Assembly: GCF_044647545.1 (NCBI RefSeq)
Contig: NZ_CP172818.1
Length of the DNA stretch: 64,000 bases
From: Escherichia coli
Lineage (GTDB): Bacteria > Pseudomonadota > Gammaproteobacteria > Enterobacterales > Enterobacteriaceae
Direction: 5' to 3' (one strand)
The translations under genes were made by a program, and so were the position numbers. Below the pieces are notes generated by a model that was not told the origin of the DNA, searched no databases, and was given only the letters and a program-made list of their open reading frames with translations. Every line of letters begins with the position of its first letter. The first letter of the stretch is position 1. Positions 47,412 to 56,688 of the stretch are shown here, piece by piece.

Positions 47412-50235
<2,824 letters not shown>

Positions 50236-50278
50236 CTATTAAAATTAAGTTCGTACGTCTGTAAAAAAGGATTTTACG

Positions 50279-53200
50279 ATGAGCGGAAAACCGGCGGCGC
50301 GTCAGGGCGACATGACGCAGTATGGCGGTAGCATTGTTCAGGGTTCTGCCGGGGTGCGTATTGGTGCCCCCACCGGCGTGGCCTGTTCAGTGTGCCCCGG
50401 CGGGGTGACGTCCGGTCATCCGGTCAATCCGCTGCTGGGTGCAAAGGTCCTTCCCGGCGAAACCGACCTTGCCCTGCCCGCCCCGCTGCCGTTCATCCTC
50501 TCCCGCACCTACAGCAGTTACCGGACAAAAACGTCCGCGCCGGTGGGGAGCCTCGGCCCCGGCTGGAAAATGCCTGCGGATATCCGCTTACAGCTGCGCG
50601 ATAACACACTGATACTCAGTGATAACGGCGGCAGAAGCCTGTATTTTGAGCACCTGTTTCCCGGTGAGGACGGTTACAGCCGCAGCGAGTCACTCTGGCT
50701 GGTGCGCGGCGGCGTGGCGAAACTGGATGAAGGTCACCGGCTGGCCGCACTCTGGCAGGCGCTGCCGGAAGAGCTTCGCCTGAGTCCGCATCGTTATCTG
50801 GCGACGAACAGTCCACAGGGGCCGTGGTGGGTACTCGGCTGGTGTGAGCGGGTGCCGGAGGCGGATGAGGTGCTGCCTGCGCCGCTGCCGCCGTACCGGG
50901 TACTGACCGGGCTGGTGGACCGCTTCGGGCGCACACAGACGCTCCACCGCGAAGCCGCCGGTGAATTCAGCGGCGAAATCACCGGCGTGACGGATGGTGC
51001 CGGGCGTCACTTCCGGCTGGTACTGACCACGCAGGCGCTGCGGGCAGAAGAGGCCCGGCAGCAGGCCATTTCCGGCGGGACGGAACCGTCCGCTTTTCCT
51101 GATACCCTGCCGGGTTACACCGAATATGGCCGGGACAACGGTATCCGCCTGTCCGCCGTGTGGCTGACGCACGACCCGGAATATCCGGAGAATTTACCTG
51201 CCGCGCCGCTGGTGCGCTATGGCTGGACGCCACGCGGCGAACTGGCGGTGGTGTATGACCGCAGCAATACACAGGTGCGCAGCTTTACTTACGATGATAA
51301 ATACCGGGGCCGGATGGTGGCGCACCGTCACACGGGCCGGCCGGAAATCCGTTACCGTTACGACAGTGACGGGCGGGTGACAGAACAGCTAAACCCGGCA
51401 GGCTTAAGCTACACCTATCTGTTATGAGCAAAACCGCATCACCATCACCGACAGCCTGAACCGCCGTGAAGTCCTGCATACGCAGGCGAAGGCGGCCTGA
51501 AGCGGGTGGTGAAAAAGGAACACGCGGACGGCAGCGTCACGCAGAGTCAGTTTGACGCGGTGGGCAGGCTTAAGACACAGACGGATGCCGCAGGCCGGAC
51601 AACAGAATACAGCCCGGATGTGGTGACGGGCCTCATCACGCGCATCACCACGCCGGATGGCAGGGCATCGGCGTTTTACTATAACCACCACAGCCAGTTA
51701 ACGTCAGCCACCGGGCCTGACGGGCTGGAAATACGCCGGGAATATGATGAATCCGGCCGTCTGATTCAGGAAACCGCCCCTGACGGCGATATCACCCGCT
51801 ACCGTTATGATAATCCACACAGTGACTTCCCCTGCGCAACGGAAGATGCCACCGGCAGCCGGAAAACCATGACGTGGAGCCGTTACGGTCAGTTGCTGAG
51901 CTTCACCGACTGTTCCGGCTACCAGACCCGTTATGACCATGACCGCTTCGGGCAGATGACGGCGGTGCACCGCGAGGAAGGCCTGAGCCAGTGCCGCGCA
52001 TACGACAGCCGTGGACAGTTAATTGCCGTGAAAGACACGCAGGGCCATGAAACGCGGTATGAATACAACATCGCCGGTGACCTGACCGCCGTCATTGCCC
52101 CGGACGGCAGCAGAAACGGGACACAGTACGATGCGTGGGGAAAGGCCATCCGTACCACGCAGGGCGGGCTGACCCGCAGTATGGAATACGATGCTGCAGG
52201 ACGGGTCATCCGCCTGACAAACGAAAACGGCAGCCACACCACCTTCCGTTACGATGTACTCGACCGGCTGATACAGGAAACCGGCTTTGACGGCCGCACA
52301 CAGCGTTACCACCACGACCTGACCGGCAAACTTATCCGCAGCGAGGATGAGGGGCTGGTCACCCACTGGCACTATGACGAAGCAGACCGCATCACGCAGC
52401 GAACGGTGAATGGTGAAACCGCAGAACAGTGGCGGTACGACGAACGCGGCTGGCTGACACAAATCAGCCATCTCAGCGAAGGGCACCGGGTGACGGTGCA
52501 TTACGGGTATGATGAGAAAGGCCGCCTGACCGGTGAGCGCCAGACGGTGCATCATCCGCAGACGGAAGCACTGCTCTGGCAGCATGAGACCAGACATGCG
52601 TACAACGCGCAGGGGCTGGCGAACCGCTGTATACCGGACAACCTGCCCGCCGTGGAATGGCTGACTTATGGCAGTGGTTACCTGGCAGGGATGAAACTCG
52701 GCGACACACCGCTGGTGGAGTACACCCGCGACCGCCTGCACCGGGAAACGCTGCGCAGCTTCGGCCGTTATGAACTCACCACCGCTTATACCCCTGCCGG
52801 GCAGTTACAGAGCCAGCACCTGAACAGCCTGCAGTATGACCGCGATTACACCTGGAACGACAACGGCGAACTCATTCGCATCAGCAGCCCGCGCCAGACC
52901 CGGAGTTACAGCTACAGCGACTCCGGCAGGCTGACCGGCGTTCACACCACCGCAGCGAACCTGGATATCCGCATCCCGTATGCCACGGACCCGGCAGGTA
53001 ACCGCCTGCCCGACCCGGAGCTGCACCCGGACAGCACCCTCAGCATGTGGCCGGATAACCGTATCGCCCGTGACGCGCACTATCTTTACCGGTATGACCG
53101 TCACGGCAGGCTGACGGAGAAAACCGACCTCATCCCGGAAGGGGTTATCCGCACGGATGATGAGCGGACTCACCGGTACCATTACGACAGCCGGCACCGG

Positions 53201-54514
53201 CTGGTGCACTACACGCGGACACAATATGCAGAGCCGCTGGTCGAAAGTCGCTATCTTTACGACCCGCTGGGCCGCAGGGTGGCAAAACGGGTGTGGCGGC
53301 GTGAACGGGACCTGACGGGCTGGATGTCGCTGTCACGGAAACCGGAAGTGACCTGGTACGGCTGGGACGGCGACCGCCTGACCACGATACAGAACGACAG
53401 AACCCGCATCCAGACGGTTTATCAGCCGGGGAGCTTCACACCACTCATCAGGGTCGAAACCGCCACCGGTGAGCAGGCGAAAACGCAGCGCCGCAGCCTG
53501 GCGGATGCGCTTCAGCAGTCCGGCGGCGAAGACGGTGGCAGTGTGGTGTTCCCGCCGGTGCTGGTGCAGATGCTCGACCGGCTGGAAAGTGAAATCCTTA
53601 CTGACCGGGTGAGTGAGGAAAGCCGCCGCTGGCTGGCATCGTGCGGCCTGACGGTGGCGCAGATGCAAAACCAGATGGACCCGGTGTACACGCCGGCGAG
53701 AAAAATCCACCTGTACCACTGCGACCATCGCGGCCTGCCGCTGGCGCTTGTCAGCACGGAAGGGGCAACAGAATGGTGCGCAGAATACGATGAGTGGGGC
53801 AACCTGCTGAATGAAGAGAACCCGCACCAGCTGCAACAGCTTATCCGCCTGCCGGGTCAGCAGTATGATGAGGAGTCAGGCCTGTATTACAACCGCCACC
53901 GCTATTATGACCCGCTGCAGGGGCGGTATATCACTCAGGATCCGATTGGGCTGAAGGGGGGATGGAACCTGTATGGATATCAATTGAATCCGATATCAGA
54001 CATCGACCCCCTGGGTTTATCTATGTGGGAGGATGCAAAATCGGGGGCATGTACTAATGGTCTTTGCGGCACACTATCCGCTATGATAGGTCCAGATAAG
54101 TTTGATTCTATAGATAGCACCGCATATGACGCCTTAAATAAAATAAATAGCCAATCTATTTGCGAAGATAAAGAGTTCGCTGGTTTAATATGTAAGGATA
54201 ATAGTGGCAGATATTTCTCAACAGCACCTAACCGAGGGGAAAGAAAAGGATCATATCCATTCAATAGCCCTTGCCCTAATGGTACTGAGAAAGTATCAGC
54301 TTATCATACTCATGGTGCAGATAGTCATGGAGAATATTGGGACGAAATATTTTCAGGCAAAGATGAGAAAATAGTTAAAAGTAAAGATAACAATATCAAG
54401 TCATTTTATTTGGGCACGCCCAGTGGTAATTTTAAAGCAATAGATAACCACGGGAAGGAAATAACAAACGGAAAAGGATTACCTAATGTCTGCAGAGTTC
54501 ATGGTAATATGTAA
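50279..54514 (+). pseudogene. rhsB: Rhs core protein RhsB with C-terminal toxin tip; interrupted by an in-frame TGA at 51425-51427, frame resumes downstream (ORF track segments 50279..51427 and 51506..54514)
   Basis: N-terminus MSGKPAARQGDMTQYGGSIVQGSAGVRIGAPTGVACSVCPGG; YD-repeat core; core-tip boundary motif DPIGLKGGW near 53940; both segments in the same frame, total 1412 codons as for intact RhsB. The break could be a real disruption or sequence error. Confidence 0.8.
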
Positions 54515-54869
54515 AAAAATATTTTTTAGGAACTGTGTCATTGTATCTTTGTTTGTTTTTACATACAACACATGGGCGCAGTGTAATAATAATATTAAAA
54601 TAATGCGCAAGTATGAAAGTGAGGGTAAATATACCGTTAGAAATTTGGTTAAAAATAAAGCTATAGCATTGGAATTAGCTGAGATATATGTTAAGAATCG
54701 TTATGGGCAGGATGCCGCAGAAGAAGAAAAACCATATAAAATCACTGAGTTAACAACAAGTTGGGTTGTTGAAGGCACCATTCACTCAGACCAAATTGCT
54801 GGTGGGGTTTTTATTATAGAAATAGGCAAAAATGATGGGGTAATTCTGAATTTTGGCCACGGAAAATAA
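54486..54869 (+). CDS. yhhH: Probable Rhs immunity protein YhhH, overlapping the 3-prime end of rhsB
   Basis: ORF track 127 aa; start lies 29 nt inside the rhsB tip, the usual toxin-immunity arrangement; AT-rich like the tip. Confidence 0.75.
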
Positions 54870-54958
54870 GTATGTAAGGATAATCAAACATCGTGTGCGC
54901 TGATGGCAGAGTAGGTGGAGGACTCCAGACAGTCAAACGATAAAAAAAGATAGCCTTT

Positions 54959-55357
54959 ATGGAGGCTCCTGCAATGTCAAATACATACCAGAAAAGAAAG
55001 GCAAGTAAAGAGTATGGTTTATATAATCAATGTAAGAAACTAAATGATGATGAATTATTTCGCTTACTTGATGATCACAATTCCTTGAAAAGGATTTCAT
55101 CTGCCAGAGTATTACAGTTAAGAGGTGGGCAAGACGCTGTTAGATTGGTAATTGAGTTCTGCTCTGATAAAAATTATATCCGTAGAGATATCGGAGCATT
55201 TATACTCGGGCAAATAAAAATTTGCAAAAAATGCGAAGATAATGTGTTTAATATTTTGAACAATATGGCATTGAATGATAAGAGCGCTTGCGTTCGAGCT
55301 ACGGCAATCGAGTCAACGGCCAGGGAAAGATCATCAAAAGTACACTTTTTGTACTAA
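54959..55357 (+). CDS. Short HEAT-repeat-like protein, possibly a truncated YibA-like orphan remnant of an Rhs element
   Basis: ORF track 132 aa; AT-rich; real start may be the internal Met at 54974 (MSNTYQKRK). Resemblance to YibA is from memory, not a search. Confidence 0.45.
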   Translation: MEAPAMSNTYQKRKASKEYGLYNQCKKLNDDELFRLLDDHNSLKRISSARVLQLRGGQDAVRLVIEFCSDKNYIRRDIGAFILGQIKICKKCEDNVFNILNNMALNDKSACVRATAIESTARERSSKVHFLY

Positions 55358-55464
55358 ATAATTCGCATTTTATGTTTAAAAATTGAGATATTCCTCATTA
55401 CCTGAAGCTGTTTTTTATTGCTTATACATGATCAAATACTCCTTACATAATTAAGGAGAACAAA

Positions 55465-56601
55465 ATGGTACTTAAAAAATTGATGGAACATATTTCTATT
55501 ATCCCCGATTACAGACAAGCCTGGAAAGTGGAACATAAATTATCGGACATTCTACTGTTGACTATTTGTGCCGTTATTTCTGGTGCAGAAGGCTGGGAAG
55601 ATATAGAGGATTTTGGGGAAACACATCTCGATTTTTTGAAGCAATATGGTGATTTTGAAAATGGTATTCCTGTTCACGATACCATTGCCAGAGTTGTATC
55701 CTGTATCAGTCCTGCAAAATTTCACGAGTGCTTTATTAACTGGATGCGTGACTGCCATTCTTCAGATGATAAAGGCGTCATTGCAATTGATGGAAAAACG
55801 CTCCGGCACTCTTATGACAAGAGTCGCCGCAGGGGAGCGATTCATGTCATTAGTGCGTTCTCAACAATGCACAGTCTGGTCATCGGACAGATCAAGACAG
55901 ATGAGAAATCCAATGAGATTACAGCTATCCCAGAACTTCTTAACATGCTGGATATTAAAGGAAAAATCATCACAACTGATGCGATGGGTTGCCAGAAAGA
56001 TATTGCAGAGAAGATACAAAAACAGGGAGGTGATTATTTATTCGCTGTAAAAGGAAATCAGGGGCGGCTAAATAAAGCCTTTGAGGAAAAATTTCCACTG
56101 AAAGAATTAAATAATCCAGAGCATGACAGTTACGCAATGAGTGAAAAGAGTCACGGCAGAGAAGAAATCCGTCTTCACATTGTTTGCGATGTCCCTGATG
56201 AACTTATTGATTTCACGTTTGAATGGAAAGGTCTGAAGAAATTATGCGTGGCAGTCTCCTTTCGGTCAATAATAGCAGAACAAAAGAAAGAGCCAGAAAT
56301 GACGGTCAGATATTATATCAGTTCTGCTGATTTAACCGCAGAGAAGTTCGCCACAGCAATCCGAAACCACTGGCACGTGGAGAATAAGCTGCACTGGCGT
56401 CTGGACGTGGTAATGAATGAAGACGACTGCAAAATAAGAAGAGGAAATGCAGCAGAATTATTTTCAGGGATACGGCACATCGCTATTAATATTTTGACGA
56501 ATGATAAGGTATTCAAGGCAGGGTTAAGACGTAAGATGCGAAAAGCAGCCATGGACAGAAACTATCTGGCGTCAGTCCTTGCGGGGAGCGGGCTTTCGTA
56601 A
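55465..56601 (+). CDS. yhhI: H-repeat-associated (ISAs1-family) transposase-like protein YhhI
   Basis: ORF track 378 aa; [51 protein letters not shown] typical of H-rpt ORFs found at the distal end of Rhs elements. Confidence 0.88.
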
Positions 56602-56688
56602 TCTTTCCCTGATACAAAAAAAAAACAAGTTCAAAACTTTATCCGGCAATCAATATATACACACAATATGAAGTCAAGTTTCCCTTCC

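Follow-up and report, generated by a model that had tools for sequence, protein, structure and literature searches.

A yibA remnant at the distal end of an Escherichia coli RhsB element, probably orphaned by a tip swap and cut by a deletion associated with the H-rpt insertion sequence

Between yhhH and the transposase gene yhhI, at the distal end of an Escherichia coli RhsB element, lies a 132-codon open reading frame (ORF) that we interpret as a dead remnant of yibA, orphaned by a swap of the Rhs toxin tip and then cut by a deletion associated with an insertion sequence (IS). We put the probability of this reading at about 0.85. Profile, structure and DNA comparisons identify the ORF as the 5' 41% of yibA, which encodes the antidote to another Rhs toxin, and place its end at the end of the H-repeat element (H-rpt). 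The distal structure of RhsB, with yhhH, the pseudogene yrhC and H-rptB (yhhI), is already known, and a remnant at this place is ordinary. In the annotation of K-12 MG1655 the same stretch, between yhhH and yhhI, is the pseudogene yrhC (b4552), and in other strains PGAP annotates a 'HEAT repeat domain-containing protein' that is incomplete, with its C-terminus missing. A literature search for yrhC returned nothing relevant, and an apparent literature match to yibA was rejected as a typo for YbiA.

Gene order and composition of the RhsB locus

The window, by which we mean the whole 64,000-nt stretch that was analyzed (contig NZ_CP172818.1, assembly GCF_044647545.1), was recognized from its ORF list and from annotated relatives as the E. 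coli nikABCDE-nikR / rhsB / yhhH / yhhI / yhhJ-rbbA region. Two ORFs on the + strand, one of 132 aa (54959..55357) and one of 378 aa (55465..56601), were confirmed by program, and their coordinates agree with an earlier note on this DNA, which had placed the shorter one between yhhH and the ISAs1-family transposase yhhI. The features of the distal region are the following.

50279..54514, + strand: rhsB, with a YD-repeat core up to the DPLGL motif at 54005-54019, then a 164-aa AT-rich C-terminal tip with DUF4329 (PF14220, E = 1.4e-39).
54486..54869, + strand: yhhH, immunity gene of the present tip, NTF2-fold (PF15631 Imm-NTF2-2, E = 3.4e-25; annotated as yhhH in relatives).
54922..54953, + strand: 32 nt left over from the 3' end of an rhsA tip of the K-12 type, encoding ..SRQSNDKKR and the stop (homology to K-12 rhsA-yibA).
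54974..55320, + strand: yibA', equivalent of K-12 yrhC, with 115 full native codons plus 2 nt out of 280 codons (profile, PDB and DNA matches).
55321..55357, + strand: ORF tail read out of the H-rpt left end, RERSSKVHFLY and then a stop (alignment to YibA and H-rpt).
55321..56611, + strand: H-rpt / ISEc1 (ISAs1 family), 1291 bp (boundaries from the comparison of 7 copies).
55465..56601, + strand: yhhI, intact 378-aa DDE transposase (Pfam, NCBIfam and K-12 annotation).
56612..56647, no strand: IS1397 right-end traces and REP target (ATACA, poly-A filler, GTTCA, then AAAC..TTATCCGGC).
56649..56688, no strand: spacer adjoining yhhJ, with the same sequence as in strains that have hicAB in place of RhsB.

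The GC content of the yibA fragment is 0.35, compared with 0.62 in the rhs core, and the ORF is thus AT-rich as the earlier note had described it; the whole tip region (53991-55320) has a GC content of 0.37 and the insertion sequence 0.40.

Compared with K-12, the rhsB gene of the window has one extra nucleotide near 51420 and lacks one about 80 nt further on, within a cluster of substitutions at 51400-51500. In-frame stops, including TGA at 51425-51427, break it into two ORFs of the same frame (50279..51427 and 51506..54514). The main toxin gene itself appears to be a pseudogene, or else the sequence is of poor quality at 51400-51500. Upstream of rhsB, nikR matches the hicAB-type strains at 100% up to position 50213 and diverges beyond. 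NikR is longer by seven codons (..EDWFRKKRY before the stop), and an exact-protein look-up of this extended NikR gave no match. The distance from the nikR stop to the rhsB ATG is 43 bp, as against 203 bp in K-12, and BLAST homology to K-12 restarts at 50262.

The ORF as an N-terminal fragment of yibA

The ORF is no chance reading frame. Over 399 nt, a stretch that also takes in the 20-nt spacer and the final 32 nt of rhsA, its DNA is 98.7% identical to the K-12 yibA region. At the protein level, NCBIfam PRK09687 (NF007244, YibA, 'putative lyase') was matched at profile positions 1-126 of 285 (E = 3.6e-48) and PDB entry 1oyz (E. coli YibA, 280 aa) at residues 1-118 (E = 7e-73). Residues 1-116 of the fragment are those of K-12 YibA and 1oyz except for a single substitution, A59V. 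The score of the fragment against the YibA equivalog model NF007244 was 164.3 bits, below the curated cut-off of 275 bits, and only the N-terminal 44% of the profile was covered; from these matches we identify the ORF as a fragment of a YibA/NF007244 member and not as a member-sized protein.

The earlier note had predicted a YibA-like HEAT protein shorter than full length and a partial hit, and this was found, with 115 full native codons out of 280. Neither of the two outcomes that it had named as speaking against it was observed: the full-length relatives are 280 aa long, not of the size of the ORF, and the homolog is Rhs-associated. Its description of the ORF as made of HEAT-like repeats stands only indirectly. 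Neither of the two Pfam models reached its threshold on the fragment (HEAT 21.9 bits with 23.5 required, HEAT_2 21.3 bits with 27.7 required), and the support comes from artificial alphaRep HEAT-like proteins, which also match it, after 1oyz, down to E = 5.6e-10.

The start of yibA' is probably the ATG at 54974, which would give a protein of 127 aa instead of 132, since this codon is aligned with the YibA start and a GGAGG, the native Shine-Dalgarno sequence of yibA, is kept at 54962-54966. The five N-terminal residues of the 132-aa ORF are an upstream extension relative to K-12 YibA. An exact-protein look-up of the 127-aa fragment returned no match. At the other end, the last 11 residues (RERSSKVHFLY) are without counterpart in YibA and are encoded by the end of H-rpt. 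The H-rpt end splits yibA codon 116, so that GCT CAG in yibA becomes GC/C AGG in the window, still coding for Ala. Because yibA ends inside this codon, at 55320, the tail and the stop codon of the ORF are read from the IS. The same RERSSKVHFLY tail is present in TW10573, 1919D3 and K-12.

K-12 yrhC and the window copy are alike in their locus, their yibA-derived sequence, the junction with the left end of H-rpt and the tail read from the IS. They differ in that the K-12 copy has four extra changes at the amino acid level, including a stop at codon 82, whereas the window copy is open up to the stop encoded by the IS and is nearer to full-length yibA. The full-length yibA of K-12 (b3594; PDB 1oyz), of 280 aa, lies straight after its cognate rhsA tip; in contrast, the window copy follows yhhH and ends at codon 116.

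An older RhsA-type module and tip replacement

Position 54922, 32 nt before the rhsA stop, is a sharp boundary: upstream of it there is no homology to K-12 rhsA-yibA, and downstream the match is near-perfect. In K-12 a 20-nt spacer separates the rhsA stop from yibA, and the parent gene is thus directly downstream of its cognate tip; the window retains this spacer together with 32 nt of the rhsA tip before yibA'. This start of homology 32 nt before the rhsA stop points to yibA as the leftover of an older RhsA-type toxin/immunity pair. In the passage of PMC3150448 that cites Vlazny & Hill 1995, yibA is described as neutralizing a growth block exerted by the RhsA C-terminus, under which stationary-phase cells fail to recover. 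The proposal of the earlier note that the ORF could be a leftover immunity gene from an earlier tip replacement gains support from both sides, namely the rhsA-tip remnant upstream (54922-54953) and the antidote role given to yibA in that passage.

A full-length yibA preceded by tip-B, yhhH and the 32-nt remnant was found at the RhsA locus (yibF...yibH) of the compared loci L001, L005 and L006, with the yibA copy of L006 marked as frameshifted by PGAP. The tip region of the window is 99.7% identical to that of L001, and for the other RhsB loci the value is 98.0-98.6%. The window and L001 also have in common A59V and, at codon 91, a synonymous change.

As the first step of a possible history, an array like that of K-12 RhsA (core, tip-A, yibA and further orphan fragments) would have lost tip-A to a new module, in which the DUF4329 tip was followed by yhhH as its immunity gene and by a 52 bp spacer. 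Of tip-A, the final 32 nt would have been left behind, followed by an intact yibA as an orphan immunity gene; arrays at this intermediate stage are still found at RhsA in several strains. Tip replacement appears to be the simplest reading for the presence of yibA here. The case resembles the orphan modules of Rhs and CDI loci (PMC2935791; PMC3150448) in that the immunity gene of a former tip is kept downstream of the current pair. It differs in what else is kept, as displaced modules usually retain a piece of the core and the whole old tip (Jackson 2009; PMC2935791), whereas the window has 32 nt of the tip and a truncated immunity gene. C-terminal displacement is recognized by a retained old tip with a core fragment, and no core fragment lies between yhhH and yibA'. 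We class the arrangement, from its gene order and homology, as a tip replacement in which the immunity gene was retained.

The H-rpt element and its insertions elsewhere

The protein encoded by yhhI has the Pfam domains DDE_Tnp_1_assoc and DDE_Tnp_1 and scored 417 bits against NCBIfam NF033564 (cut-off 70), over profile positions 1-314 of 314, so that the ISAs1-family transposase named in the earlier note is confirmed as such and is full-length. The terminal inverted repeats of H-rpt, CAGGGAAAGAT(C/T)A, lie at 55321-55333 and 56599-56611, with 11 bp perfect and a match at 12/13 positions. H-rptB/ISEc1 (yhhI) of K-12 is the same element in its length of 1291 bp, its 378-aa DDE transposase, its inverted repeats and its RhsB position, with about 2% DNA divergence from the window copy.

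In a BLAST comparison with L001, positions 54000-55323 of the window were collinear with rhs-tip / yhhH / yibA, followed by a 658-bp jump, after which homology was found again for 55320-56611, corresponding to H-rpt. In L001 and L005, H-rpt is present as simple insertions with target duplications, CCGGTGTAC and ATCCACCTGT, respectively (9 and 10 bp). These two insertions (4575-4584/5876-5885 in L001 and 4600-4609/5901-5910 in L005) are independent and lie 25 bp apart, both in the one orphan fragment of rhs core that follows full-length yibA. The clean 9-10 bp duplications of these copies are comparative evidence for transposition of the element.

When the transposase was looked up by exact protein match, the matches were all H-rpt copies from other Rhs loci. 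The metagenome contigs L011-L014 and L016 carry, distally in a different Rhs locus, a transposase whose protein sequence is the same as that of the yhhI product of the window. That locus comprises vgrG, a gene for a DcrB-domain protein, one for a PAAR-Rhs protein with an Ntox30 tip and two small ORFs, and nfrB/nfrA-like genes adjoin it. Exchange or conversion between H-rpt copies at different Rhs loci is suggested by their sequences.

H-rpt as a deletion joint

The point at which yibA is truncated is the left end of H-rpt itself (55320/55321). At K-12-type RhsB loci, the terminal ~84 bp of IS1397 (IS3 family) abuts the right end of H-rpt and is followed by the REP target. In K-12 (L003 7526-7609) and L010 (1793-1877) this IS1397 remnant carries no annotation. 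The window retains only traces of IS1397 and REP, with ATACA at 56612-56616 and GTTCA plus AAAC..TTATCCGGC at 56629-56647. A target-site duplication was sought at H-rpt in both the window and K-12 and none was found, the left flank being GTCAACGGC and the right flank ATACA...; the short direct repeats around yhhI for which the earlier note had proposed a search are thus absent from the window.

With truncated yibA as its left flank and a truncated IS1397 end as its right, H-rpt is best interpreted as marking, at the outermost end of the element, the joint of a deletion that removed distal DNA. An H-rpt standing between two unrelated truncated sequences bears what we take as the signature of an IS-associated deletion. 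The idea that H-rpt marks where displaced cassettes accumulate had to be given up: it sits at a truncation point, without direct repeat and with an IS1397 end opposite, and nothing was found between H-rpt and the yhhJ flank.

The second step of the proposed history would have taken place at the RhsB locus, with a loss of the DNA between yibA codon 116 and a point close to the end of an IS1397 copy. This IS1397 would have sat in the REP beside yhhJ, and a single H-rpt would have come to lie exactly at the joint, either through an adjacent deletion mediated by H-rpt or because two H-rpt copies in direct orientation had recombined. The junction of the H-rpt right end with the 3' part of yibA and that of the left part of IS1397 with the H-rpt left end each occurred in 0 of 5426 complete E. 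coli genomes. Since neither of these predicted ancestral junctions was found there, the order of events and the mechanism of deletion, given here as we infer them, are unproven.

The junction between yibA' and H-rpt was found, in identical form, in 1810 of the 5426 complete E. coli genomes and, being shared so widely, is an old event that was inherited. The 3' half of yibA occurs in 2955 of them, as one copy in all but 11; K-12 carries full-length yibA at RhsA in addition to the fragment at RhsB. No equivalent of the window's junction between RhsB (H-rpt) and yhhJ was found in the 5426 complete genomes, and GTDB species representatives gave no exact match to it. One record covered the window configuration over its full length, at 86.9% identity, and is a K-12-type locus.

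The spacer from the right end of H-rpt to the yhhJ stop (56612-56688) is 77 bp long, compared with 154 bp in K-12, and its last 40 bp are those of the hicAB strains. In 1654 of 5426 complete genomes, nikR and yhhJ are joined in one short place. The hicA/hicB toxin-antitoxin pair replaces the RhsB element between nikR and yhhJ in the 15 genomes listed, which match the window at 99.9% identity in their nikR and yhhJ flanks; hicA of L007 has an internal stop. Mobilization of the whole RhsB element by H-rpt, an idea raised by these flanks unlike those of K-12, was rejected, as the conserved block runs past H-rpt into the IS1397/REP traces.

Alternative origins and the fate of the fragment

The precision with which the H-rpt end meets yibA, and the simple insertions of the element in L001 and L005, would also fit a plain transposition of H-rpt into an intact yibA at RhsB, with the present structure as the primary insertion. 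Such an event is at odds with the missing target duplication and with a right flank that consists of the IS1397 end or its traces instead of yibA, and the continuation of H-rpt into the 3' part of yibA was found in 0 genomes. These observations refute plain insertion as a complete explanation, and we regard it as extremely improbable. A primary insertion of H-rpt may have been the first step, but further deletion or recombination would be needed. A genuine short HEAT-repeat family of about 130 aa, and thus no fragment at all, might be argued from the presence of the same ~127-aa frame in many genomes. It is ruled out, to the point of having practically no chance, by a score of 164 against the required 275 bits on the N-terminal 44% of the YibA profile, by the origin of the last 11 residues in the terminal repeat region of the IS, and by a DNA identity to full-length yibA that ends exactly at the IS end.

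The outcome of a tip swap followed by an IS-associated deletion would be the 127-aa frame observed, made up of 115 full YibA codons, the split codon 116 (Ala) and 11 residues encoded by the IS. It keeps the start and the ribosome-binding site and lacks 59% of the alpha-solenoid, and we infer that the fragment is no longer protective against the RhsA toxin. A scan for promoters and terminators gave nothing over the shuffle expectation. The fragment alleles of K-12 and BS-01 have an additional stop at codon 82, while the window and 2 of the 4 other RhsB loci examined (TW10573 and 1919D3) keep an open frame, with 0-1 amino acid changes from yibA, indicating slow decay. This may reflect weak selection, or gene conversion with full-length yibA as the donor. 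The open frame, the native start and GGAGG and the persistence of the junction in 1810 genomes could also be taken to mean that a truncated YibA-IS fusion is still expressed and useful, as minimal immunity, as a decoy against RhsA-type toxins or in another role, and there is a precedent in CDI systems, where an orphan immunity gene may be expressed and give protection (Poole 2011; PMC3150448). We consider this very unlikely, given that 41% of a 280-aa solenoid is left, that the K-12/BS-01 lineage has the codon-82 stop, that the curated annotation is a pseudogene, and that full-length yibA stands beside the fragment in K-12, with the yibA 3' half in 2955 genomes; the generally low divergence of the region (98-99.7%) explains the few changes equally well. 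The narrower proposal, that the 127-aa fusion still works against RhsA-type toxins, as a minimal immunity protein or as a decoy, seems to us less probable still; if true, a three-repeat N-terminal piece of the solenoid would suffice for toxin binding.

Implications

With the ORF read as a remnant of yibA, its annotation should be that of a yrhC-type pseudogene and not of a HEAT-repeat protein, and H-rpt at this place should be read as a deletion joint rather than as a simple insertion. The locus would then stand as a clean textbook case of Rhs remodeling, in which a tip was swapped, the old immunity gene was orphaned and the distal array was pruned by an IS.
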